Shown piece by piece: positions 21,061-34,612 of a stretch of DNA of 64,000 nt. A program made the translations under genes and the position numbers. This stretch comes from Escherichia coli. GTDB lineage: Bacteria > Pseudomonadota > Gammaproteobacteria > Enterobacterales > Enterobacteriaceae. The stretch lies in the NCBI RefSeq assembly GCF_050320075.1, contig NZ_CP190018.1; one strand, 5' to 3'. Numbering within the stretch: position 1 is the stretch's first letter; every line of letters begins with the position of its first letter. The notes below the pieces were generated by a model. That model was not told where the DNA came from and searched no databases. It was given only the letters and a program-made list of their open reading frames with translations.

Positions 21061-24000
21061 TTAATGGAAAATGACGTCGGGTGCGCTTAACGCTTCACTC
21101 AAATCAAACACATCAAGTTCGGCAAAAGTGACAGATTTATTGTCACGGTATACATGAAGAGAACGGAAGCTCATTAGCGCTTTGCTATCAACATTGTAGT
21201 GGTTAAAACCGGATGAAAACTTAAGGACCAGCCGGTACTCGCCCAGGTCATAGACAAATGCATTCTCATAGCCTGACTCCCAGCCTTTGTATCGCATTCC
21301 CATAAGTTGCCCAACGGTAGCAGATTTACCTTCCCAGCGATTCAAACTATTACTGGCTGACTCGTCAGGCGTGAGCAGTACTGTGCGCCGTGCCAATTGG
21401 CGAAAAGGCGGCATAATTTCGTAATCGGCAAAAAGCTGTGCAAACTCACTGCGCATTTCTGCTGCCATTTCTAACGGGTGGGCAATGCCAATCAGAGCAT
21501 CGGCAGGCAGGTCAATTGGCTCATCTTGCTCATTGCAGAACTCCCCCTCAGCGGCCACACGAAAGGCGTTGAGTAAACGACGCGGTTCATTTGCCGGATA
21601 AACACCCCATATTAATCGCTGAGTAACCAGACGGGTAAAGGGATGATTAACAAACAGAGAATGAAAATCTGCCAGCGACCAGCGTCGGGTGGTGCGCAGG
21701 GCAGTTTCAAGACGCGGGAGCAGGTTTTTGCTCACCTGAGTGGCATCTTTTTTTAGCCCTTTTAGTCGGGCCAGTGCCTCGGGTGCTTTCAGTTGATCGT
21801 CATCGGCGCGCAACCGGGGAACGCTTTTCTGGCGAACGTTTTGCTGATCAAAGATAACCGGGTTAAGGTTTTCATCGAAGCGAACGGTAAATTGCCGTGG
21901 ACCAAAATCAAAAATCAACGCCTGCGGATCATCAAGACCCAGTGTTGGGACTAATCTGTCCGCTAACTGTTCCTGGCTTAGCCCTCGATTTTCTGCGACC
22001 ACCTGAAGAAATTCCGCCGCGTTATCACGTAAGGGGCGGGATTTCGCCCGTTGCGATATATGATGCAGCTGTATCAGTGCCATATCATTATTCATCTGAG
22101 TAAGTATGTTCAGGCCGCTGACGGCACGGGCAGATTTGCCTTCCTGTGGCCAGGCAAGGATCTGTGTCGTCAGATCCCGTGCCGTGCTTTCGTCGCCAAA
22201 GAGACTTAACGCCAGAAATGCCCAGTTGTCTTTTGCGGGAGCACCAGCTTGTTGCCACGCGGTGAAAAGATCCCAGGCAAAAGCTGCCAGCGTTTGCGGC
22301 TGGCAGAAAGTTTTCAGTTGTTCCAGTCCGCTATAAAAACGTCCGCCCTGGGTAAAGCGCAGCATTTCGCCGATAATTTCCAGTGCGTCATCGGTAACAG
22401 GCTGATTATTCGTGATAAGGCGCGGCCTGGACCACATTGCCGGCTGCCAGAAATCAGGGGCTTTTGGAATGCGTGTCGGGTAAATCTCTATTGGACTCTG
22501 TTTAAGTAAATGCTCCAGGGCAGGCCATACATCTGTACGCTGCCAGCGGTTTGCCGCGGTTTGCAGCAATTCACCATGTCCCTGTTCGTAAAGTAAACGT
22601 AGGGCAAGTAATGCAGCTTCGCTATTATCGCTGGATTTGGTGAAGACAAGAGGGATAAGTGCAGTAGCCGTATGTTCCGGCCATTGTAAAATCCACTGGC
22701 GAGCCAGATCACGCTGCGCCGCGAAACGTCGCCAGACGCGGGCAACGGGCAGGGCCAGTTCTGTTGCGCCAAAATTTAAAATTAACGGAAATGTTTCTTT
22801 TGGACGATATGAAAAAGCCAACAGCAGACCTGGTAGAGCATCCAATCCGAAGATACTGAGAAAATAGTCCTCACCCGCGAACAGATGCTTTTTCTCATTG
22901 ATACGTAGCCAGAAAGTCAAAGCTATCTCACGCGGCAACTGTGCCAATAAATACAGGTTCCAGATACTCTTTTCCCGACGATAGCGTGAGTAGCTGTCAT
23001 TTTCCCATATGTTAATTAACACTTCTACGTGACCGCTGCGAAGCGCCTGTTCTGCTAATTGTGCTTCCGGGGAGTTCCAGCCATTCAGGATCTCTTCAAC
23101 CCGCCCCTGGTAGTAATGCCACTGAACAATGAGTGAATTGCGTGCAGCATCCAGTTTTCCGGGGAGTATATAATTCAGAAACAGCCATACATCATCTCCA
23201 AAACCCAGCTCCTGTAGTACAACTCGTCCACTTTTATGTTCCATGCGTTCCGCAAGAGATTCCGTGCTGAAATAACGGGCAGACTCAGTGGCGGCAAGCC
23301 TCTCTCGTTCGCCTGGTTGCCAGTAAACTTGCGGCGTTAATTCGAACGGTGCCAAATCAAGACGTGGAACTGTCATTTTTTTCTTACTACGCCACGGTGG
23401 TGAAACGAGGATTTCAGGCATTTGGCTGTTATCGGTGCTATCAATAACCGTTTTAGGCGGTGCCGATAAATAACTATTCAGCACTGACCGGGCTTGAGTA
23501 CTTAACCACGGCATCACCTCTTCTGCCAGTTGTGGCTGCGATGCCATCAGCGTTTGTAACAGCGTACGCCAGTATTCATCACGTGCTTTTTGCTGTGCAG
23601 GCAGCTTTTTGTCTTCGATGATTGGATAACCAGGGCGCGTAGGTGGTTCTTTTAGCGCCAGCAGTTCTGCCAGTGCGGCAAGCGTCGCATGGGGGAAATT
23701 TTTACTGTATTTAGCTACACGTTGCAGGCTGGGTTTGTTTTTATCAGCAACTAACAGCAGGGTGCGGATGACCTGCGGATGGTTAATTTGTACCAGCAGA
23801 CTGCCGCAATCTTCTTTATGGGCATACATTGCCAGGCGTGGAACGGCTGCCAGTCCTTGTTCGCGCAAAAGGGCAGCGCAGGCCGCGTAGCCGAAGTGGT
23901 TTTCATGCGACATGTAGCTGGCTTCCCGATCGCTAAATATATCCTGGCTCCAGTAGCGTTCGAGTTTTCTCACCGCTCTGGGGTCAATAGCAACAACTTT

Positions 24001-24693
24001 TAACCACTCCTTAGAATGAAAATGAGTCCACGGGCATTCAAGGCTTACCAACTCATTGGCGATTTCTGGTTTTTCCGGGAGGATCAGAGCAATAAAAGGG
24101 CGGCGAACTTTGGTTATTCCTGGCAGTGCGGCAATGAGTTTGTCGGCGCAACGCTGCCAGCTGCTTTCCTCTGCCAGAGAGAGATGCTTACGCAGTCGGA
24201 GATCGAATTCGTTATAGGTTTCTGATCGATAACCATAGCCATAATCCTCGTTCTGATACTGCAATGTCACTAGCAGAGGATCACTTTCATAACATCGTGT
24301 AATAAACTGGCGTGCAATCACCACCTCAGTCGCATATTCCAGTCCCTCTTGTTGGACGATTTCGTCGAGCAACTGTTGGCTATCATTTTGCGCGATACAG
24401 GCTAGCGCCGCCATTGTCCGGGCCGGAACTGAGGGTTTGTGTTCGCCAATCAAGTTGATGGCCTGCGTAATGGCCGACTGCCACTCCAGTGAAAAATTTT
24501 CATAACGCCAGACAATGTTTTTTTTCTTCTCAGCTTTTTGTAGCAATTCATCACCCAGTGTCTGGATGAGGCTTTCAGTGATAACAGGCACCGGTTCGCC
24601 CGGCCAACTGCGATGGCTGAGCGGCGTTTTGCCTTTTTTATATTTCAGTTCCACTTGGGCGTTATCCGCCAGCCACGGTAATTCCTTGTCCAT
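21061..24693 (-). CDS. yehI: Large uncharacterised protein YehI (DUF4132-type, no WGR domain)
   Basis: 1210 aa. Shares conserved blocks with the two upstream paralogs (HLSLAEES.WQ.C..K, LIWGVY, C-terminal region) but lacks their N-terminal WGR-like domain. Confidence 0.85.
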   Translation of the reverse strand: MDKELPWLADNAQVELKYKKGKTPLSHRSWPGEPVPVITESLIQTLGDELLQKAEKKKNIVWRYENFSLEWQSAITQAINLIGEHKPSVPARTMAALACIAQNDSQQLLDEIVQQEGLEYATEVVIARQFITRCYESDPLLVTLQYQNEDYGYGYRSETYNEFDLRLRKHLSLAEESSWQRCADKLIAALPGITKVRRPFIALILPEKPEIANELVSLECPWTHFHSKEWLKVVAIDPRAVRKLERYWSQDIFSDREASYMSHENHFGYAACAALLREQGLAAVPRLAMYAHKEDCGSLLVQINHPQVIRTLLLVADKNKPSLQRVAKYSKNFPHATLAALAELLALKEPPTRPGYPIIEDKKLPAQQKARDEYWRTLLQTLMASQPQLAEEVMPWLSTQARSVLNSYLSAPPKTVIDSTDNSQMPEILVSPPWRSKKKMTVPRLDLAPFELTPQVYWQPGERERLAATESARYFSTESLAERMEHKSGRVVLQELGFGDDVWLFLNYILPGKLDAARNSLIVQWHYYQGRVEEILNGWNSPEAQLAEQALRSGHVEVLINIWENDSYSRYRREKSIWNLYLLAQLPREIALTFWLRINEKKHLFAGEDYFLSIFGLDALPGLLLAFSYRPKETFPLILNFGATELALPVARVWRRFAAQRDLARQWILQWPEHTATALIPLVFTKSSDNSEAALLALRLLYEQGHGELLQTAANRWQRTDVWPALEHLLKQSPIEIYPTRIPKAPDFWQPAMWSRPRLITNNQPVTDDALEIIGEMLRFTQGGRFYSGLEQLKTFCQPQTLAAFAWDLFTAWQQAGAPAKDNWAFLALSLFGDESTARDLTTQILAWPQEGKSARAVSGLNILTQMNNDMALIQLHHISQRAKSRPLRDNAAEFLQVVAENRGLSQEQLADRLVPTLGLDDPQALIFDFGPRQFTVRFDENLNPVIFDQQNVRQKSVPRLRADDDQLKAPEALARLKGLKKDATQVSKNLLPRLETALRTTRRWSLADFHSLFVNHPFTRLVTQRLIWGVYPANEPRRLLNAFRVAAEGEFCNEQDEPIDLPADALIGIAHPLEMAAEMRSEFAQLFADYEIMPPFRQLARRTVLLTPDESASNSLNRWEGKSATVGQLMGMRYKGWESGYENAFVYDLGEYRLVLKFSSGFNHYNVDSKALMSFRSLHVYRDNKSVTFAELDVFDLSEALSAPDVIFH

Positions 24694-24702
24694 GCTCTTT
24701 CC

Positions 24703-27700
24703 TTATTCAAACAGGGCTTCAATATCGTTAATGAGTTCGCTGGCGGTGATGTCGTCGAGCACGGAGAACTGCGCTTCCTGAGTTGAATTACTCCCCCAGC
24801 CATAGCTTTCCGCTTTGCCTTCCCATAGCCACAGCTTGCTTAAGACCTGCTCAGCGCTAAGATCGGCTGGTGACATACCCACCGCAAAACCTTCGTCGAT
24901 TTCCATGATTAACGACCAGCGACCGAGAGGTTTGATCATCCATCCGATCCAGCCTCCATCCTGTGGTTCGCCCTTTATCCAGCCTTTATTTGCCAGCCCC
25001 ATGACCCGGCCGCTCGGGCATTTTCTGCCTGCCCAGCGGGTCAGTTCGCTGGCGTTGCGCTCGGCTTCTGTCAGGGCGTAACTGTTACGTTCAAGCTGAC
25101 GGAACGGTGGTAGCAGTTCGTAGTCGGCAAAAAGCTGACCAAAGGCGACAGCATCCGTCGGTGATATTTCCAGAACGTGAGGAATGCCAACAGAGATATC
25201 GCCTTCCTGCAAGGTGAAAAGATCATCGTCAGCGGTGCTGTAGCTGTTATCTTCCGCCACCCTAAAGCACGCCTGTAGCTGGTTTTCGGCGCTATAAACG
25301 CCCCAAATCAGACGGCGGGTTAAGTGACGAACCAGCGGATGCTCAACCAGGAAGAGCTGAAAGTTTTCCGGCGACCAGCGGCGGCGCAGGCACATGGCGG
25401 ATTCCAGCCTTGCTACCTGCTGGGCGGCGACGGTACGCGCATCTTTTTTCAGCAATTTGTAGCGGTTAACAGCATCGTTTGCCTGTGATTCATCATCGCT
25501 TTTATTGGGTTTAGGTAAGTCTTTCAGGCGGCTGCCGGAAACATCGCGCACAAACGGTTTTAAGGTTTCATCAAAGCTGACGGTGAACTGCCGTGGGCCA
25601 AAATCCAGCAGCAGCGAACCGTTATCATCCAGACCGAGAGCCGGTGCTAACCGATCTTCAAGCTCCGCTACCGTCAGTTCGCGACTTTCGGCAATGTCGG
25701 CAATTTTCTCTTTCGCCCGCTCCTGTAATGCTTTGAATTTCAGTTTCTGGGCAATGCCGTTAAGCTGCATCAGGGCGATATCACTACTGATAGCGGCGAG
25801 GATATCCAGCCCGACGGTGGCGCGTTTATGCTGGGATTCACCAGGCCAGGCGCGTATTAATGGCGTCAGTTTGCGGGCGGTGTCATCGTTACCGAGAACG
25901 CCTAACGCAGTGAACGCCCAACTCTCTTTCGACGGCGCGCCAGCGGTCTGCCAGGCGGTAAACAGATCCCAGGCAAATTCAGCCAGTGAGTCGGCGGTAC
26001 AGGCATCTTTCACCTGCAATAATCCCGGATACAGCGCCTCCTCCTGATGGAAGCGGAGCATTTCACCGAGGTGCTGGAGTGCGCTATCGGGCAGTGATTG
26101 GGCATTTGCTTTTAATACCGGGCGGGTCCAGATCGATGGCTGATAAAAGGCCGGAAGAGTGGGGATTTTTGTCGGGTGATTATCTAAGGGATCGAGCGCA
26201 AGCATAGCGTTCACCGCATCTGTTACTTCCGGCTGGTTATAACGCCGGGCGATTTCTTGCAGTAATGGTTGATGACCGTTTTCGGTAAGCATACGCAATG
26301 CAGCGCGGGCGTTATCCTGTGCTTCACCGGCTTTGCCGAGCGCCGCAGACAGCAGGCCGGTAATGGCGTGTTCCGGGTATTTCAGCAGCCAGGTGCGGGC
26401 GTCTTGTCGTAGGGTTTTGAGTTTGTTGAAGGCGCGGGCGACGGCAGGTGCCAGCTCACTCGCTGCGAAGTAATTCGTTATGGGCAAGGCTTCCTGTGGA
26501 TAGCGTGCAAGTGAGTTTACTAACCCAGGTAATCCTTTGAGTCCAAAATGTAACATGGCGTATTCGGTATCGGTATGCGGAGATAGAGTAAGGGCATTCC
26601 ATGCTCTTACTGCTTTCTCCAGCGGCAATGTTGTCAAAATCCCCAAATGCCAATAATGCCCGGTAGGTGAATGAAACACCTTAAATTCACTTATTAAAGT
26701 TGAATAATCTTCATTTAGCCATGCCTCAACTACCGCTTCGGGAGCTTTAATATATGTACCAGCGATCCGTCGTTGAAAACCCATCCTTGCCAACAGATTG
26801 GCAGTACTTTCTTCATGACTAACCGTGATGTGTTTTGAATACCAGATATATTTCGCCAAAAGTTGATTACTGATTTCTTCTGTCAGATAACTGATTGGCT
26901 CAATACCTAATGGTGCTAAATCAAGCACTGGAATCGGCGATTTTTTCTTTTTCGAAAGCCATGGTGGGGAGACTACTATGGCCGGCAGTAGATCGGCGCT
27001 GGCATGGTTTGAGGGCTGTGTCAGTTGTTGCTGGCATGATTTCAGCACTGCAACTGCGGGTGTCGAAAGCCAGGGAATGACCTGTTCTGCTAGTGTCGGT
27101 TGCGAGATAAGCATCGTCATTAGCATAATGCGCCAACTATTCTCTTCTTTTTGCACTAGAAGTTCCGCCAGTGCTGCCAGTGCTGCGTGTGGGAACGCAG
27201 CGCAGGCTTTCGTCATTCGATCGTGACAGCGTTTAGTATGCCCTGCTACACGTATAAGCAGTGTTAATGCGAACGGATGATTGATATGACGCAACACATC
27301 GGCGCAGTAGTCACTTGCGACATAGGGAGCAAATCGGGGCAGGGCCGCAACACCTTGCTCCTGTAATACGGTGGCTGACCATATCGCACCACAATAGTAA
27401 TCATCAAAAATGGCATATGGCTCGTGATATTTTTCTAATGAGGCAAGAATGTGCTCATCAGTCGCCACTATTTTTAGCCACTCCAGCGAGGGTAATTTCT
27501 TTTGCCCCAGTAGACGCTGGGCAATTTCATGTGCAATTTCTGGTTTTTCGGGCAATAACAAAGCAATTAATGGTTGCCGCCATTCTGGAATATGTGGAAC
27601 TGCGGCAATAAGTTTTTGTGCACATTTTTGCCAGAGAGACTCTTCCGCCAGTGATAAATGTTTACGTAGGCGTAATTCAAAGCTGGAATATTGCTGCAAA

Positions 27701-28497
27701 TAATCAGGTGAAATGCCAGACGACAGGAAAACAATATTATTGTTGACATAATCCCATTCAATAGATATTTGTTGAAGATGTATTATTACATCAGTAGCAT
27801 ATTCCAGACCGCCTTCCTGAATAATCTGATCCATAACATCCGCACGCTCTTTATATCTCGTGCAGTGCAGTTCAAGTGCCGCGAGTACAGCCATTACCGG
27901 TGATGGTAATTTTGTCGTTTTCGGGCTGTTAATCAGATCGATCGCCTGAGCGATGAAGTTTTGCCACTCTAAAGTACAGGCGCTGAAGTCAAATGTAGCT
28001 GTTTTGTTATCCCGTTGCGACACGCCACAGGCTAAGCGACGTAACTGGGTTAATTTATCTACAGGTGTAACAGGATCTCCGGGAAAGCGGCGATGGCTTA
28101 AGGTGGTGGGTACGACTTCAAGCGGAAAAACGACAGCAATATCTTTTGCCAGCCACGGTAAAATAACGTCTGTATTTTTGTCAGCCACGTAGAATTCTGG
28201 TGTAACTGAGGGCTGTTCCTGAATGATGGTAGAAAAGTCAGATAATTCGAGAGATTTCGTTACCGTTCGAGTATGTTTCGATGTAGCATTCTCCGCATGT
28301 TCCACATACCCCTTTTTCGTTTTCTCCGCAATCAGCTTGAGTTCCGCTTTTTCCGCCGCCGCAGCATCTGCAAAGCTTTTTACCTGACTTTGCCCGTTGG
28401 TGCCGACTTTGCCCCAACTGATATTCAGTTCGTTTCCCTGCTGCTCCACCGCCCAGAATTTATGTGATTTTTCGTCCTGATAAATATAGGTTTTCAT
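24703..28497 (-). CDS. molR: WGR-domain / DUF4132 protein (MolR family), intact 1264 aa
   Basis: N-terminus MKTYIYQDEKSHKFWAVEQQGNELNISWGKVGT is WGR-like. Length equals the K-12 molR pseudogene product as I recall it. 9-nt gap to yehI. Confidence 0.8.
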   Translation of the reverse strand: MKTYIYQDEKSHKFWAVEQQGNELNISWGKVGTNGQSQVKSFADAAAAEKAELKLIAEKTKKGYVEHAENATSKHTRTVTKSLELSDFSTIIQEQPSVTPEFYVADKNTDVILPWLAKDIAVVFPLEVVPTTLSHRRFPGDPVTPVDKLTQLRRLACGVSQRDNKTATFDFSACTLEWQNFIAQAIDLINSPKTTKLPSPVMAVLAALELHCTRYKERADVMDQIIQEGGLEYATDVIIHLQQISIEWDYVNNNIVFLSSGISPDYLQQYSSFELRLRKHLSLAEESLWQKCAQKLIAAVPHIPEWRQPLIALLLPEKPEIAHEIAQRLLGQKKLPSLEWLKIVATDEHILASLEKYHEPYAIFDDYYCGAIWSATVLQEQGVAALPRFAPYVASDYCADVLRHINHPFALTLLIRVAGHTKRCHDRMTKACAAFPHAALAALAELLVQKEENSWRIMLMTMLISQPTLAEQVIPWLSTPAVAVLKSCQQQLTQPSNHASADLLPAIVVSPPWLSKKKKSPIPVLDLAPLGIEPISYLTEEISNQLLAKYIWYSKHITVSHEESTANLLARMGFQRRIAGTYIKAPEAVVEAWLNEDYSTLISEFKVFHSPTGHYWHLGILTTLPLEKAVRAWNALTLSPHTDTEYAMLHFGLKGLPGLVNSLARYPQEALPITNYFAASELAPAVARAFNKLKTLRQDARTWLLKYPEHAITGLLSAALGKAGEAQDNARAALRMLTENGHQPLLQEIARRYNQPEVTDAVNAMLALDPLDNHPTKIPTLPAFYQPSIWTRPVLKANAQSLPDSALQHLGEMLRFHQEEALYPGLLQVKDACTADSLAEFAWDLFTAWQTAGAPSKESWAFTALGVLGNDDTARKLTPLIRAWPGESQHKRATVGLDILAAISSDIALMQLNGIAQKLKFKALQERAKEKIADIAESRELTVAELEDRLAPALGLDDNGSLLLDFGPRQFTVSFDETLKPFVRDVSGSRLKDLPKPNKSDDESQANDAVNRYKLLKKDARTVAAQQVARLESAMCLRRRWSPENFQLFLVEHPLVRHLTRRLIWGVYSAENQLQACFRVAEDNSYSTADDDLFTLQEGDISVGIPHVLEISPTDAVAFGQLFADYELLPPFRQLERNSYALTEAERNASELTRWAGRKCPSGRVMGLANKGWIKGEPQDGGWIGWMIKPLGRWSLIMEIDEGFAVGMSPADLSAEQVLSKLWLWEGKAESYGWGSNSTQEAQFSVLDDITASELINDIEALFE

Positions 28498-28509
28498 TGC
28501 AAAGTCCTT

Positions 28510-31500
28510 TTAATCAAAAAGTGATTCGATGTCGTTAATGAGTTCGCTGGCGGTGATGGCATCAAGCGCGGAGAACGTGAGCGAGGGCTGTGTACTGTAG
28601 CGTTCCCCTGGTGAAGTGATTTTTACGCTTTCAACAGGTAGCAGGTCGCTATACCCCGTTTCGCCATAAATTAATGAAAAATGTTCTGTTTCAAGTTCGA
28701 GAGCGCCATAAGGGGTAGATTTGCGCATCGCATAGACGCTGCCGCTTTCTTCCAGACGTTGCCAGCCTCGACGTTCCAGCCCGACAATGCGCCCGGCCTG
28801 GCAAAGACGTCCTTGCCAGCGTATCAATTCATGGGTATCACGTTCATTATCAGTAAGGTGGTAATAACCACGATCGAGTTGGCGAAAGGGAGGAAGCTTT
28901 TCGTAATCAGCATAAATTTGCCCAAATGCAGTGGCGGATTCAGGAGATATTTCCAGCACATGCGGTATACCGATGTTTCCTGCTGGCAGCGTGAATAACT
29001 CATCCTGCGCATCGCTGTAAGTGCTGTCTTCTGCGACCCGGAAGCAGGCGATCAGCGTGTTTTCCTCAGTATATACCCCCCATAACACCCGTCGGGTTAA
29101 GTGACGTACCAGCGGATGCTCCACCAGAAACAGGCGGAACTGCTCTGCCGTCCAGCGTCTGCGCTGGCACATATCCTGCTCCAGACGATCAATCTGCTGG
29201 CTGGCAATGGCGTGCACATCTTTCTTCAATTGTTTGAAGAGGTTAACGGAGTCAGTTGCCAGTGTTTGATCATCGCTCTGATTTGGTTTGGGTAAATCTT
29301 TCAGGACTTTGCCGTTTGCATCGTGCACTACAGGTTTTAAGGTTTCGTCAAAACCAACGGTGAATTGACGTGGGCCGAAATCCAGTATCAGCGAGCCACT
29401 GTTATCAAGCCCTAAATCTGGAGCCAGGCGGTCTTCCAGTTCAGCCATAGTCAGCCCACGGTTTTCAGCAACTATGTTGATTTTCTCGCGGGCATGTTCC
29501 TGTAATGCTTTGAATTTAATTTTTCGCGCGATGCCATTAAGCAGCATTAGCGCAACATCGCTGCCAATATCAGCTAATACATCCAGCCCGTAAACCGCGC
29601 GTTTATGCTGGGATTCACCCGGCCAGGCACGGATAAGCGGGGTTAATTTACGTGCGGTGTCGTCATTGCCTAAAATCCCAAGCGAAGTAAATGCCCAGTT
29701 TTCTTTTGCGGGTGCGCCAGCTTCTGTCCATGCCGTGTAGAGATCCCAGCCAAAGTCAGCCAGTGATTCGTGGGTGAAGGTCTCTTTGATGGTCGCCAGC
29801 CCAGCGTAGGAGGTAATGTCGCGTGGAAAGCTCAACATTGTGCCCAGGTGGCGCATAGCGTCATCTGGCAGAGGCAGGTTGTTACTTTTAAGCCGTGGTC
29901 TGCGCCATAAGGTGAACTGATAAAAGCCGGGCAGTGGGGCGATTTTAGCGGGATATTCTTCCAGCGGATCGCTATCGAACAATGTTGCCAGCGCAGCTAA
30001 AACATCAGGTTGGTTGTATCTCCGGCCGATTTCTTCAATCGTTTCTCGCTGGTTTAATTTCACTAGCAGGCGGAATGCCTGGCGGGCATATTCCCGATTT
30101 TGGCACGGTTTGCCCAGCGCCAAAGGCAGTAGCCCGGCGGCGGCATGGCGCGGGTTATTTGCCAGCCAATTAATGGCATCCTTGTAAGCCATTTTTTTCT
30201 GTAACCGCTGCGCCATTGGTAAGGCTAGTTCACTGGCCCCAATAAAGAGGGTGAATATCCACAGTCGTTGATGATCTCGTTGCAAGCAGGTCATAAACGC
30301 AGGAATGGCCGTACTACCAAAAACTGCCAGAATCTCTTTCTCACCTGAATATCGCTCCTCAATGATTATTTGGTTGAGAAATGAAATCGCCTGTTGTCCC
30401 GGTAAGTAACAAAGCGCAGATAGATTCCAGCTTTTGTTGGCATTGTTGTGATATTTCGCAAACTCAGCTTTTAGTGCTGGAAAATCAAAGCGCAACAAGG
30501 CATCAACAGCGCTTTGCGGTATATATTTTTTTTCATGTAAGTCATCTTCGCAATGCAGCCATTCATTAAAACCTAATTGCCAAAGGATTTGTTGTTCTGG
30601 TGTAAAAGGAATGAAAGATGTCTCCCAGCTTTCTTTTTCAATTAGTGGCAGGTCGGTAAATAAGGTTTGCTGTGATGACTGATATTGCGCGATTTCACTG
30701 AATCTGGATATGTCAGTATGACTGATTAACTCTGTAATTCCTGGCGTGATGTCAGTGACTGCAGGGATGGGAAGCACCGGTAAATCAAATACGGGTATTA
30801 CATTCGTTTTCTTATTTATTACCCACGGTGGAGCGACAAACAGCTCCGGCAACATATCCGCAGTGGCGTATTCACATTCTTCAGCGACTAACTGAGTACG
30901 ACATTCAGATAAGATGCCTGCCGCTTTAGCATTAACCCAGGGAATGACGTCAGTGACTAAATCTGGCGTGGCGGTAATCAGTTTGACAAGCGCTTTACGC
31001 CACTGTGCATCTTCATGTATTGCCAGTAAAGTTGCATAAGCGGCAAGAGCCGCAGCGGGATGTTTTTGACAGGCTTTGCTTAAGTATTCCAGGTGCTTTT
31101 TCTTGCCAATTACACCGAGGATCAGAATTTGAATCGCATCCGGGTGATTCGTTTTCCATAGCCATTTGACAAGATCTTCAGTCTCGCTGATGCGCTCGAA
31201 GAGATAAGTGGGATTGTCAGAATGCTCTTCCGTAAACTCAAGAAGTATCCGGCTTACACCGCGCACCCCATTATTTGCCAGCAACATTGCCAGATAAGCG
31301 CGAAAATCATGATACAACGGTGGGAAGTCGTATTTTTCTGCTGTAGTCAGAGCGGCGTCATCGGTTACCACCAGTCTTAACCAGGTCATCGCCGGAACGT
31401 TTTGATCTGCATAACGTAGCGCCATAGCATTGGCAATATCCGGGCGTTCAGGGAGCAGTAACGCCGCAAAAGGTTGCCGTGCTGGGGATAGCGAGGGAAT

Positions 31501-32307
31501 AGCAGCGAGAACTTTATCTACACAGCGTTGCCACTCATCTTCTGAAGCGAGTGAAAGATGATGACATAGACGTTGATGCCAGTTCGGTAGTGATTCTGCT
31601 TTGAGATCAGGGGGAATAATGGTGGTGACGTCGGCTTTTACTGGTTTATATTTGAGTTGAAGAGCGAGAAGGGCGATTTCAACGGTAGTTTCCAGACCAC
31701 AGCGAATGACTAAGTCATCGACCAGTTCATCTGTAGAGTAAGAGTTCCATAAATTCCAGAGCAATGCCGCATCAGATTGTATACTTCCTGTTTGTTGATT
31801 ATTCAGAATTCGCCTTTGTAACTCGGCAAACGCCAGCTGCCAGTTTTCAGGATAAGAGCGGTAATTATTGTCGGGGTCATATGCCCTGGTGTTATTCGCG
31901 ATGCGCTTCCATATTTGGCCATCTTTGTACAGATAATTGATCTCTCTGGGGCGAGAGCGATGAGGAAAAGCAAATCGATTAATATCGCCAGTTACCGGAA
32001 TGACTGCATCATCAGCCACCCATGGGCGTTTGTTTTTACTCTCAGGGGAGGTTTCAACTTCAGGAGTGGCTTTGGTGATGGGGGGGATATGCACGTTTGC
32101 TAAAGCATTTTCCACATAGCCTTTTTTCGTTTTCTCTGCGATCAGCTTAAGCTCCGCTTTTGCCGCTGCCGCAGCATCCGCAAAACTTTTTACCTGGTTT
32201 TGCCCTTTGGTGCCAACTTTTCCCCAACAGATATGCAACTCGTTTCCCTGTTGCTCCACCGCCCAGAATTTATGTGATTTTTCGTCCTGAAAGATAAAGT
32301 GCCTCAT
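28510..32307 (-). CDS. Second WGR-domain / DUF4132 paralog (MolR-like), 1265 aa
   Basis: N-terminus MRHFIFQDEKSHKFWAVEQQGNELHICWGKVGT. Same architecture as molR, diverged in the middle. 12-nt gap to molR. I do not recall a second copy in K-12. Confidence 0.8.
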   Translation of the reverse strand: MRHFIFQDEKSHKFWAVEQQGNELHICWGKVGTKGQNQVKSFADAAAAAKAELKLIAEKTKKGYVENALANVHIPPITKATPEVETSPESKNKRPWVADDAVIPVTGDINRFAFPHRSRPREINYLYKDGQIWKRIANNTRAYDPDNNYRSYPENWQLAFAELQRRILNNQQTGSIQSDAALLWNLWNSYSTDELVDDLVIRCGLETTVEIALLALQLKYKPVKADVTTIIPPDLKAESLPNWHQRLCHHLSLASEDEWQRCVDKVLAAIPSLSPARQPFAALLLPERPDIANAMALRYADQNVPAMTWLRLVVTDDAALTTAEKYDFPPLYHDFRAYLAMLLANNGVRGVSRILLEFTEEHSDNPTYLFERISETEDLVKWLWKTNHPDAIQILILGVIGKKKHLEYLSKACQKHPAAALAAYATLLAIHEDAQWRKALVKLITATPDLVTDVIPWVNAKAAGILSECRTQLVAEECEYATADMLPELFVAPPWVINKKTNVIPVFDLPVLPIPAVTDITPGITELISHTDISRFSEIAQYQSSQQTLFTDLPLIEKESWETSFIPFTPEQQILWQLGFNEWLHCEDDLHEKKYIPQSAVDALLRFDFPALKAEFAKYHNNANKSWNLSALCYLPGQQAISFLNQIIIEERYSGEKEILAVFGSTAIPAFMTCLQRDHQRLWIFTLFIGASELALPMAQRLQKKMAYKDAINWLANNPRHAAAGLLPLALGKPCQNREYARQAFRLLVKLNQRETIEEIGRRYNQPDVLAALATLFDSDPLEEYPAKIAPLPGFYQFTLWRRPRLKSNNLPLPDDAMRHLGTMLSFPRDITSYAGLATIKETFTHESLADFGWDLYTAWTEAGAPAKENWAFTSLGILGNDDTARKLTPLIRAWPGESQHKRAVYGLDVLADIGSDVALMLLNGIARKIKFKALQEHAREKINIVAENRGLTMAELEDRLAPDLGLDNSGSLILDFGPRQFTVGFDETLKPVVHDANGKVLKDLPKPNQSDDQTLATDSVNLFKQLKKDVHAIASQQIDRLEQDMCQRRRWTAEQFRLFLVEHPLVRHLTRRVLWGVYTEENTLIACFRVAEDSTYSDAQDELFTLPAGNIGIPHVLEISPESATAFGQIYADYEKLPPFRQLDRGYYHLTDNERDTHELIRWQGRLCQAGRIVGLERRGWQRLEESGSVYAMRKSTPYGALELETEHFSLIYGETGYSDLLPVESVKITSPGERYSTQPSLTFSALDAITASELINDIESLFD

Positions 32308-32402: not shown

Positions 32403-32437
32403 ATTTATAAAGAAAAGGCGCTGTCGATACAGCGCCT
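32403..32437 (-). terminator. Intrinsic terminator of metG
   Basis: Hairpin ggcgctgt-cgat-acagcgcc followed by a U-rich tract on the minus strand, 10-45 nt after the metG stop. Confidence 0.6.
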
Positions 32438-32447
32438 TGAAAGGAGA

Positions 32448-34481
32448 TTATTTCACCTGATGACCCGGTTTAGCACCGGCATCCGGGCTTAGCAGGAAAA
32501 TATCTTTCCCGCCAGGACCGGCAGCCATCACCATGCCTTCGGAGATACCGAAGCGCATTTTACGTGGTGCCAGGTTAGCCACCATAATGGTGTGACGACC
32601 AATCAGTGCCTGCGGATCCGGGTAAGCAGAACGAATGCCGGAGAAGACATTGCGTTTTTCACCGCCGAGATCCAGCGTCAGGCGCAGCAGTTTGTCGGAA
32701 CCTTCAACAAACTCTGCGTTTTCAATCAGTGCCACGCGCAGGTCAACTTTGGCGAAGTCATCAAAGGTGATAGTTTCCTGGATTGGATCGTCAGCCAGCG
32801 GGCCAGTTACCGGCGCGGCAGCGGCTTTTACTTCTTCTTTAGATGCTTCCACCAGTGCTTCAACCTGCTTCATATCGATGCGGTTATACAGCGCCTTGAA
32901 CGGATTCACTTTATGGCCCAACAGCGGTTGCTGGATACCATGCCAGGTCAGTTCTGTATTGAGGAATGCTTCTGCACGCTCGGTCAGTTTCGGCAGTACC
33001 GGCTTCAGGTAAGTCATCAGCACGCGGAACAGGTTGATGCCCATCGAGCAAATTGCCTGCAGGTCGGCATCGCGGCCTTCCTGTTTCGCCACCACCCACG
33101 GAGCCTGTTCATCGACATAGCGGTTAGCCAGGTCAGCCAGCGCCATAATTTCGCGTACTGCTTTACCAAATTCGCGGCTTTCCCACGCTTCACCAATCAC
33201 TTCAGCGGCATCCGTGAAGGTTTTGTACAACTGCGGGTCAGCCAGTTCGCTTGCCAGCACGCCGTCAAAACGCTTGTTGATAAAGCCAGCGTTACGGGAT
33301 GCCAGGTTAACCACTTTATTCACGATATCGGCATTCACACGCTGAACGAAATCTTCCAGGTTGAGATCGATATCATCAATGCGCGAAGAGAGTTTCGCAG
33401 TGTAGTAGTAACGCAGGCTGTCAGCATCAAAATGATTCAGCCAGGTACTGGCTTTAATAAAGGTGCCGCGAGACTTGGACATCTTCGCGCCGTTCACCGT
33501 CACATAGCCATGAACAAACAGGTTAGTCGGCTTGCGGAAGTTGCTGCCTTCCAGCATGGCAGGCCAGAACAGGCTGTGGAAGTAAACGATATCTTTACCG
33601 ATGAAGTGGTACAGCTCGGCGGTGGAATCTTTCTTCCAGTATTCATCGAAGCTGGTGGTGTTGCCGCGTTTGTCGCACAGATTCTTGAAGGAACCCATGT
33701 AGCCAATCGGTGCGTCCAGCCAGACGTAGAAATATTTGCCCGGCGCGTTCGGAATTTCAAAACCGAAGTAAGGGGCGTCGCGGGAGATATCCCACTGTTG
33801 CAGGCCGGATTCAAACCACTCCTGCATTTTGTTTGCCACCTGCTCCTGCAACGCACCGCTGCGGGTCCATGCCTGCAACATTTCGCTGAAAGAGGGCAGA
33901 TCAAAGAAGAAGTGTTCAGAATCACGCATTACCGGGGTAGCGCCAGAAACCACCGATTTCGGCTCGATCAGTTCAGTCGGGCTGTAGGTCGCACCGCAGA
34001 CTTCGCAGTTATCGCCGTATTGATCCGGGGATTTACATTTCGGGCAGGTGCCTTTTACAAAACGGTCCGGCAGGAACATGCCTTTTTCCGGATCGTAAAG
34101 CTGAGAGATGGTGCGGTTTTTAATAAAACCGTTTTCTTTCAGGCGAGAGTAGATAAGTTCTGACAACTGGCGGTTCTCTTCGCTGTGCGTCGAGTGATAG
34201 TTGTCATAGCTGATGTTAAAGCCTGCGAAATCAGTCTGATGCTCCTGACTCATTTCGCCAATCATCTGCTCCGGGGTGATACCGAGCTGCTGAGCTTTCA
34301 GCATGATCGGTGTGCCGTGGGCATCGTCGGCGCAGATGAAGTTGACCTCGTGGCCGCGCATTCGCTGGTAACGGACCCAGACATCAGCCTGGATGTGCTC
34401 CAGCATATGGCCGAGGTGGATTGAGCCGTTAGCGTACGGCAGTGCGCACGTCACCAGAATTTTCTTCGCGACTTGAGTCAT
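32448..34481 (-). CDS. metG: Methionyl-tRNA synthetase
   Basis: ORF 32448..34490. Start at [25 protein letters not shown] gives 677 aa. Class I aaRS HIGH motif and KMSKS present. Confidence 0.95.
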
Positions 34482-34612
34482 AGTAGGCATTACTTCTTAA
34501 TAGTGAAAAGGGGTTAGATAGTACCAAATGGAAAAATGTTAAGTAAGTACTTCTCTATATTCTTCAGGTAAACTATCAGCTGATGGTTTATCTATACAAA
34601 AAAGGAGTCGGG

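Follow-up and report, generated by a model that had tools for sequence, protein, structure and literature searches.

We analysed a pair of long tandem genes, here called A and B, in a 64,000-nucleotide stretch of Escherichia coli DNA (contig NZ_CP190018.1; hereafter the window, to which coordinates refer unless the locus of another genome is named). Taken as a whole, our results are best explained if A, B and the adjacent yehI form an ancestral trio that belongs to the yehLMPQ operon, if the single molR gene of E. coli K-12 is a fusion derived from two members of this trio, and if the three encoded proteins act as adaptor or sensor subunits of the machine specified by the operon, an account that we hold with moderate confidence. 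The trio in this window is the ordinary, already annotated, ancestral state of a polymorphic locus. Our analysis adds, among other things, the placement of the trio in the YehL-type operon, which occurs in three phyla with a varying number of DUF4132 genes, and the interest that remains lies in the YehL-type system as a whole, the sequence feature itself being ordinary.

The B-A-yehI array and its counterpart in K-12

First, the three genes are complete and lie back to back on the minus strand downstream of metG (32448-34490). Gene B (28510-32307; 1265 aa, RefSeq WP_001215556.1) and gene A (24703-28497; 1264 aa, RefSeq WP_000860770.1) each encode a WGR domain, a helical region and a DUF4132 domain, and they are followed by yehI (21061-24693; 1210 aa), a third paralogue which carries DUF4132 without WGR. 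The intergenic gaps measure 12 nt between B and A and 9 nt between A and yehI. Our open reading frame (ORF) map confirmed the statement of the first-pass annotation that the 1264-aa and 1265-aa frames are uninterrupted, and both genes are already annotated in RefSeq, where the names used for the pair are 'WGR and DUF4132 domain-containing protein' and 'DUF4132 domain-containing protein'. Over 15.8 kb, the window is 100% identical to E. coli strain YZLc1-3. A terminator-like hairpin 3' of metG (32415-32438, minus strand; 10-bp stem followed by a T-run), recognised by a consensus scan only, would imply that B, A and yehI form a transcription unit of their own. A promoter scan of the region returned no more sites than shuffled sequence, which leaves the metG terminator as the one noteworthy signal.

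The domain content of the three proteins is clear from Pfam scans, which were run on 1200-residue pieces of A, B and YehI. WGR (PF05406) was found at residues 7-69 of A (E 1.1e-17; 28291-28479, minus strand) and at residues 5-67 of B (E 1.1e-17; 32107-32295, minus strand), and the heads of both proteins have the PARP-like WGR fold. Close to the C-terminus, full-length DUF4132 matches (PF13569; model positions 1-179 or 3-179) cover residues 988-1173 of A (E 3e-51; 24979-25536), residues 999-1182 of B (E 9e-48; 28762-29313) and the corresponding part of YehI (E 1e-46; 21280-21834, coordinates shifted by the 10 residues trimmed from the query), all on the minus strand. The scan of YehI returned DUF4132 alone and no WGR match, in agreement with its earlier description as a WGR-less third member. 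No helix-turn-helix or other transcription-factor domain was detected in A or B in Pfam or NCBIfam scans, and the legacy name 'molybdate metabolism regulator' or 'MolR family transcriptional regulator', which some sources still use, thus finds no support in the predicted domains.

Confident AlphaFold models of A, built from alignments of 31-33 homologues, extend this picture. The N-terminal model (residues 1-700; predicted local distance difference test score, pLDDT, 81) predicts the WGR head as a beta-sheet plus helix, followed by a disordered linker (pLDDT below 50 at residues 70-109) and by helical domains, while the C-terminal model (residues 690-1264; pLDDT 88) predicts a series of paired helices that leads into an alpha/beta domain, in which several beta-sheets accompany a long helix at the centre, and a conserved tail helix at the very end. 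A and B thus share an architecture that comprises a PARP-like WGR head, a linker, an all-helical variable module of ~600 residues, a strongly conserved C-terminal module and an invariant acidic tail, and YehI has the same body without the WGR head. In A, the linker (~residues 70-110) and the variable helical module (~110-700) are encoded at 26398-28200 (minus strand) and the conserved C-terminal module (residues ~700-1264), which combines HEAT-like helices with the alpha/beta DUF4132 domain, at 24706-26397 (minus strand). A search of PDB sequences returned matches to WGR only, and fold searches with both models found generic HEAT/ARM-like repeats and WGR, with nothing for the alpha/beta DUF4132 domain. 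At the protein level A and B are 47% identical overall; as the earlier description had it, conserved ends enclose a divergent middle, with 82% identity in WGR and 72-82% over the ~300 C-terminal positions (alignment columns 951-1250) versus 16-45% in between, and both proteins finish in ...ITASELINDIE(A/S)LF(E/D).

Second, comparison with related genomes shows that the trio is ancestral. E. whittamii and two cryptic Escherichia lineages also have B-A-yehI in this order, with yehK and yehLMPQ behind it, and the trio occurs without yehK in Klebsiella oxytoca and K. spallanzanii, at an amino acid identity of ~60% to the Escherichia proteins and not as the near-identical DNA of a recent transfer. 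Three orthologue groups, in which B joins Klebsiella copy 1, A joins copy 2 and YehI joins copy 3, emerged by neighbour-joining from the middle region (A residues 100-700) and from the C-terminal region alike, and the triplication therefore pre-dates the split between Escherichia and Klebsiella. Because the same trio is found in E. whittamii, the cryptic clades and the K. oxytoca group, these sequence relationships point to three old, individually conserved paralogues and to the single gene of K-12 as the derived state. The first-pass annotation was right that K-12 has a single fragmented molR; the polarity implied by that comparison has to be reversed, since the trio is the ancestral and common arrangement and K-12 carries a derived deletion fusion.

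The sequence of the K-12 locus shows how this fusion arose. Strain MG1655 has one pseudogene between metG and yehI, annotated as a DUF4132 domain-containing protein that is 'frameshifted; internal stop' and split into three pieces in our ORF map. Alignment of the window to K-12 showed that gene content is not identical: the body of molR is orthologous to A, as part of a collinear block of 7819 bp (yehK-yehI-A) with 93.5% nucleotide identity, and B is missing save for its first ~15-156 nt. The start of the single-copy gene, ATGAGACACTTTATC (MRHFI...), is of the B type, and differs from A's own start, ATGAAAACCTATATT (MKTYI...). Moreover, in the K-12 pseudogene and in one intact single-copy allele the diagnostic sites at nt 5-15 have the base of B and those from nt 168 on the base of A, K-12 molR being B-type at nt 156 in addition, and the metG-side flank upstream of the K-12 gene is continuous with that of B. 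Since the diagnostic sites switch from B to A and the flank is B's, the K-12-type gene is a B(5')::A fusion, left when 3.8 kb were deleted across the direct repeat that encodes WGR, which at 195 bp and 87.7% identity is the longest stretch of similar DNA shared by A and B; unequal recombination between the WGR-coding 5' ends removed the body of B. Most single-copy strains retain an intact fusion, and the frameshift and stop of the K-12 lineage came later. The locus of K-12 is the same as that of the window, lying between metG and yehK with yehI as a direct orthologue, and differs in that B is lost, the 5' end of the remaining gene comes from B and this gene carries a frameshift and a stop, whereas both genes are complete here. 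Because K-12 molR joins two genes through a deletion and has since decayed, this strain makes a poor model for the system, of which it is a naturally occurring partial knock-out.

The WGR-coding ends also differ from the rest of the two genes in their divergence. In the WGR segment (28291-28497 versus 32107-32307) A and B show a synonymous divergence of 0.67-0.94, against saturation everywhere else, and a tree of WGR groups the sequences by genus and not by paralogue, a result that is suggestive given that it covers 70 residues only. Together these patterns suggest that gene conversion keeps the WGR-coding 5' ends of A and B alike. We also considered gene conversion as the cause of the likeness of the C-terminal regions and rejected it, as synonymous sites are saturated there.

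Third, the locus is polymorphic throughout E. coli. The survey of copy number and intactness that had been suggested for the array was carried out with gene B as a blastn query against 5426 complete E. coli genomes, of which 1629 matched at a query coverage of at least 80%. About 30% of sequenced E. coli, among them sequence type (ST) 131 and O157:H7, therefore carry B, in alleles that range from 100% down to ~84% nucleotide identity, and ~70% are without it; the remaining genomes gave only the 31% cross-match of the query to gene A. Intact A alleles reach down to 86% amino acid identity. We then examined the annotation of 18 distinct lineages, picked at intervals down the hit ranking (nine with two copies and nine with one). 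B was intact in 7/9 and A in 5/9 of the two-copy lineages; in the single-copy lineages the one gene was intact in 8/9, with K-12 as the exception, and yehI in 7/9. Independent inactivating lesions in different genes of the cluster were present in 11/18 lineages. In O157-type strains both B (stop) and A (internal loss) are broken, and in one O157-type strain so are yehI and yehM; yehI is frameshifted in JSWP006 and CFS3246, A is frameshifted in ES4, yehL has a stop in 1332KP, and A20 has stops in yehM and yehQ with a fully intact trio. The whole cluster is intact in AR_0086/REF1, strain 20 and 1008S19, and these strains offer a direct route to the function of the system.

The array has also served as a landmark, the three-gene 'DUF4132 region' being the insertion site of a blaCTX-M-15 transposon in a population study of ST131 (PMC9334617). 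In strain THO-003 (locus L096, 1-8691) an IS26-bounded resistance region with aac(6')-Ib-cr, blaOXA-1, a catB remnant and aac(3)-IIe truncates A and replaces the DNA downstream, and this insertion matches the TnMB1860 type described for ST131 (PMC9334617).

The trio as a variable front end of the yehLMPQ operon

Fourth, we show that the trio is the variable front end of a conserved operon that continues with yehL, yehM, yehP and yehQ. In the window these four genes follow on the minus strand. The first, yehL (19027-20104), encodes a MoxR-type AAA+ ATPase (AAA_5, E 1e-33 for an intact allele) and is a pseudogene, with split ORFs and a frameshift near 19650-19680; the second, yehM (16737-19016; DUF5682), is likewise a pseudogene owing to an in-frame stop at 18345-18347. 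Both lesions are shared by two other assemblies of the lineage (L002, L008) and are thus not sequencing errors. The remaining two are intact: yehP (15608-16744) encodes a VWA protein with the metal-ion-dependent adhesion site (MIDAS) motif DQSGS, and yehQ (13611-15611) a SWIM zinc-finger protein (E 0.0013) with two CxC..CxH motifs. YehL has a weak match to bpMoxR (E 0.0022), and its nearest NCBIfam matches, also weak, are GvpN and MadB-type AAA_5 ATPases; otherwise an NCBIfam scan of eight proteins returned WGR-only similarity to a Leptospira family.

To place DUF4132 in a wider context, relatives were collected by a profile-free search of 1.84 billion cluster representatives, which gave 2566 proteins at E<=1e-30, mostly of ~1200-1300 aa and conserved mainly over the equivalent of A residues ~620-1190. 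In 74 loci from GTDB species genomes, whose ORFs were labelled with E. coli YehL, YehM, YehP, YehQ, A, B and YehI, we found that in 59 cases the DUF4132 gene or genes stand directly before homologues of several or all four of YehL, YehM, YehP and YehQ on the same strand; in Burkholderia the yehLMPQ homologues precede the DUF4132 genes. These linked loci come from Enterobacterales, Neisseriales-type Betaproteobacteria, Burkholderiales, Xanthomonadales, Trichlorobacter, Mycolicibacterium and a metagenome-assembled genome of the Propionibacteriaceae, and so cover three phyla (Gamma-, Beta- and Deltaproteobacteria, and Actinobacteria). Three independent, Pfam-labelled metagenomic contigs repeat this order as WGR/DUF4132, AAA_5, DUF5682, VWA_CoxE and SWIM. 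The other 15 loci consist of seven array interiors or contig ends and eight solitary extra copies in Massilia. DUF4132 genes number one in most taxa, two or three in several and at least five in Massilia, and the four partners are single-copy; WGR-less copies often lie nearest to yehL, as they do in E. coli.

The partners look competent, their key motifs being invariant. All YehL homologues (57/57) carry the P-loop GEPGTAKS and VRFEE, all YehP homologues (54/54) the MIDAS motif DxSxS and all YehQ homologues (50/50) CxC..CxH, and the tail motif of DUF4132 proteins, D.I.ASEL..D.E.L, is conserved across phyla. The nucleotide-binding site of YehL is non-canonical, with Ala where Gly is usual in the P-loop and Glu-Glu instead of Asp-Glu in the Walker-B-like VRFEE, as seen at L003 10192-11280 and in homologues in L015-L088.

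Several individual loci of this set deserve mention. In Massilia (L035/L064, L055, L062, L069/L080) and Duganella (L029, L058), three to at least five full-length WGR-DUF4132 genes stand in tandem before one yehLMPQ-like operon. Locus L014 (6883-12213) encodes a 1776-aa fusion of HATPase_c, WGR and DUF4132 beside a response regulator and an AAA_5 gene. On a metagenomic locus (L098) an AbiEii gene (866-1870) lies directly upstream of the operon and a second, WGR-less DUF4132 gene (12362-15202) follows the SWIM gene.

Between the array and yehL, the window further contains yehK (20680-21000, minus strand), a small gene confined to Escherichia, for which PADLOC and NCBIfam scans returned no family match. 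It is frameshifted in B2-type strains (loci L003 and L009, 11982-12298) and truncated by IS1 in CFS3246 (locus L092, 598-798). A zorO-orzO type I toxin-antitoxin module lies between yehK and yehL (20216-20291, minus strand; 20537-20626, plus strand) and comprises a 29-aa ORF (MDTLTQKLTVLIAVLELLVALLRLIDLLK) and the OrzO-P RNA (Rfam RF02083, 101 bits). The stretch that holds it (~20396-20681) is missing from K-12, as was reported for O157:H7 (PMC2887945).

Candidate roles of the trio and the selection acting on it

How might such a front end work? We propose that A, B and YehI would be alternative adaptor or sensor subunits of a YehL-YehP remodelling machine. The conserved C-terminal module may dock on this machine, where the invariant Ser-Glu of the tail could, by analogy with other MIDAS-ligand pairs, provide a ligand for the MIDAS site of YehP, and the WGR head together with the variable helical module may set what each paralogue recognises, so that the paralogues and the allele cassettes of A described below would amount to alternative recognition surfaces. 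ATP hydrolysis by YehL could then remodel or release the bound target. This role fits because an N-terminal part that varies and recombines is joined to a C-terminal part shared beside the same four partners, and the variable copy number of DUF4132 with single-copy partners fits it as well. In PARPs, WGR domains engage nucleic-acid ends.

A number of observations weigh against this proposal. The adaptor or sensor role, the pairing of tail and MIDAS site and nucleic-acid binding by WGR would all be carried over from domain precedent, and the WGR motif of A and B in E. coli reads W-G-K and not W-G-R. The eight solitary DUF4132 copies of Massilia (L048, L065, L070, L073, L074, L078, L081 and L087) lack adjacent partners, the genomes concerned having linked arrays elsewhere, and a 1673-aa WGR-less DUF4132 protein (L100, 10001-15022) is encoded by a DinG-like helicase gene without MoxR genes nearby. 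Finally, in the window itself the ATPase gene yehL and yehM are dead and the trio is intact, which is unexpected if the trio strictly needs them. With these two genes inactivated the system is incomplete here, which probably makes the trio an orphan unless its proteins can work in the absence of the ATPase.

The adaptor or sensor proposal leaves two kinds of task for the machine, surveillance or conflict on the one hand and the maturation of a client complex on the other; both are possible and not separable here. We regard it as a tentative possibility that [WGR-DUF4132]n together with YehLMPQ constitutes an uncharacterised anti-phage or anti-mobile-DNA system, with the WGR-DUF4132 paralogues as putative sensors of foreign nucleic acid or proteins and the MoxR-VWA pair as the switch. 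The tandem expansion of the putative sensor, the deep allele classes with recombination and the independent lesions in different cluster genes in 11/18 lineages count in favour of such a role, as do the silencing of yehL and yehM by H-NS/StpA in K-12 (PMC3686432), the zorO-orzO module inside the cluster, the AbiEii gene upstream in one metagenomic locus, the weak bpMoxR match of YehL and the precedent of MoxR-vWA ternary systems (PMC7159879). However, A, B, YehI, YehK, YehL, YehM, YehP and YehQ gave 0 matches to PADLOC-DB v2, and the system is not included in the survey of MoxR-vWA conflict systems, which makes no mention of SWIM, WGR, DUF4132 or YehL (PMC7159879). We recognised no effector domain (nuclease, protease, TIR, Sir2 or pore former), and the genes occupy a fixed chromosomal site between housekeeping genes and no mobile island. 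The DUF4132 family was not found in 50,697 phage records and is rare on plasmids, where every occurrence lay on a megaplasmid or on a chromosome wrongly labelled as a plasmid, and omega values of ~0.2 (see below) do not favour a conflict role either. The broader form of this idea, that the operon is a widespread, unrecognised nucleic-acid-sensing surveillance or immune system in which the DUF4132 paralogues and the A cassettes are interchangeable sensors of a MoxR-VWA switch, is in our view no less speculative; were it true, such a function might have escaped notice partly because K-12 deleted one sensor and broke another.

We consider it rather doubtful that the machine instead serves housekeeping or conditional maturation, assembling or activating a specific complex or metal centre with the DUF4132 proteins as scaffold or client subunits. 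This would be the default role for MoxR-VWA pairs (PMC3893208, PMC7159879) and is in line with the similarity of YehL to GvpN and MadB-type ATPases, with purifying selection on every component, with the apparently vertical inheritance of the trio in Escherichia and Klebsiella and with its chromosomal, non-mobile location. The operon, however, kept no candidate client enzyme across the 74 loci, in which only five families recur, and frequent pseudogenisation and the loss of B from ~70% of E. coli sit poorly with housekeeping; nor would one expect a chaperone for metal insertion to carry a WGR head. A faint trace of such a function would survive in the old name 'molybdate metabolism regulator', molR having reportedly been linked to molybdate by genetics of the 1990s; yet the strain from which the phenotype took its name has molR as a pseudogene. 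If the proteins prove to form a true sensor-driven surveillance machine they would define a new class, and if they form a dedicated chaperone an annotation gap in E. coli would be closed.

A further reading, put forward in the first-pass annotation, holds that diversifying (positive) selection is now acting on the three paralogues as a specificity or sensor array, and this we consider unlikely. It has some appeal: the middle regions of A and B are strongly divergent, allelic diversity is very high in both genes, copy number varies across taxa, and the N-terminal module of A is dimorphic within E. coli with saturated synonymous sites. We therefore estimated the ratio of non-synonymous to synonymous divergence (dN/dS, or omega; Nei-Gojobori) from codon alignments of 8-11 intact alleles per gene from E. 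coli and other Escherichia species. Gene-wide values were 0.21 for A, 0.21 for B and 0.17 for YehI, compared with 0.11-0.12 for YehM, YehP and YehQ and 0.05 for YehL. In pooled 60-codon windows the C-terminal third gave omega values of 0.02-0.15 and the N-terminal two-thirds gave values of 0.2-0.48, the maximum of 0.48 falling at A residues 45-134, where it overlaps the disordered linker. Neither gene-wide nor in any 60-codon window, which is the resolution of the analysis, did dN/dS exceed 1, and at this resolution the trio is under relaxed but clear purifying selection. In addition, the paralogues are older than the split between Escherichia and Klebsiella, and the C-terminal likeness of A and B reflects purifying selection with saturated dS. 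Of the specificity or sensor array itself, the variable copy number and the dimorphic N-terminus of A fit the idea, and what does not hold is recent diversification, because the Klebsiella triplets are orthologous and the synonymous sites between A and B saturated.

The dimorphism of A looks, at omega ~0.17, like ancient alleles swapped by recombination. Over residues ~45-700 (26398-28360; 17663-19600 in L003) E. coli has two classes, class 1 comprising the window, K-12 and E. whittamii and class 2 comprising AR_0086, JSWP006 and a cryptic clade. Between the classes dS is 1.6-2.6 and dN 0.34 in this segment, whereas dS is only 0.07-0.26 over residues 701-1264 of the same genes (the C-terminal 560 codons). 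Because dS is high before and low after this point, the sequences point to an anciently polymorphic cassette whose breakpoint for recombination lies near codon 700, which is also where the family-wide conserved core starts. By megablast at a coverage of at least 80%, class 1 is present in 3384 and class 2 in 679 of the 5426 genomes; since ~1360 genomes match the class queries partially, further mosaics of A probably exist.

It is similarly improbable that the trio of this strain is a non-functional relic heading to decay. That yehL and yehM are already dead, that the same frameshift and stop recur in two other assemblies of the lineage and that decay is common across E. coli would all agree with this, but three ORFs of more than 1200 codons are uninterrupted and omega across alleles is well below 1. 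Moreover, A20 keeps the trio with yehM and yehQ broken, which hints either at a function independent of the machine or at recent lesions in the partners. An assembly artefact or very recent tandem duplication, for which nothing speaks beyond the tandem arrangement and the similar lengths, can be dismissed, since A and B share 47% protein identity and no DNA more similar than the short WGR repeat, their synonymous divergence outside WGR is saturated and the same tandem order is seen in 1629 complete genomes as well as in species other than E. coli.

Relation to known systems

Finally, the operon can be set beside systems that have been described before. In the part of the MoxR literature that bears on it, YehL is the name-giver of one of seven subfamilies of MoxR AAA+ ATPases, with function unknown (PMC3893208, citing Snider & Houry 2006). 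Precedents for MoxR-VWA pairs include NorQ/D, CbbQ/O, CoxD/E, RavA/ViaA and CobS/T, the last acting with ~140-kDa CobN (PMC3893208, PMC7159879). The YehL subfamily likewise has a VWA partner, and yehLMPQ adjoin WGR-DUF4132 genes, yehL and yehM being pseudogenes in the window; we found no description of the DUF4132 component or of its variable copy number in the papers searched, and a literature search on DUF4132, the yeh genes, molR, DUF5682 and WGR contexts returned no functional study. The MoxR-vWA ternary conflict systems (Kaur, Burroughs, Iyer & Aravind 2020, PMC7159879) likewise combine a MoxR AAA+ ATPase and a vWA protein with large variable components. Unlike those systems, the operon described here has no detected VMAP, beta-propeller, FtsH or effector-associated domains.

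Compared with PARP1/2/3, the WGR proteins of E. coli have neither a PARP catalytic nor a helical regulatory domain, and their motif is WGK. The DUF4132 proteins have no sequence or fold similarity to CobN/BchH, nor to any solved structure, and YehM (DUF5682) and YehQ (SWIM) are extra components relative to cobaltochelatase- and CbbQ-type machines. In those machines, exemplified by CobS/CobT/CobN and CbbQ/CbbO-Rubisco, a small MoxR-type ATPase and its MIDAS partner act on or together with a large protein (~1250 aa, ~140 kDa), and the large third subunit of CobN-like machines is represented by several paralogues in some organisms.

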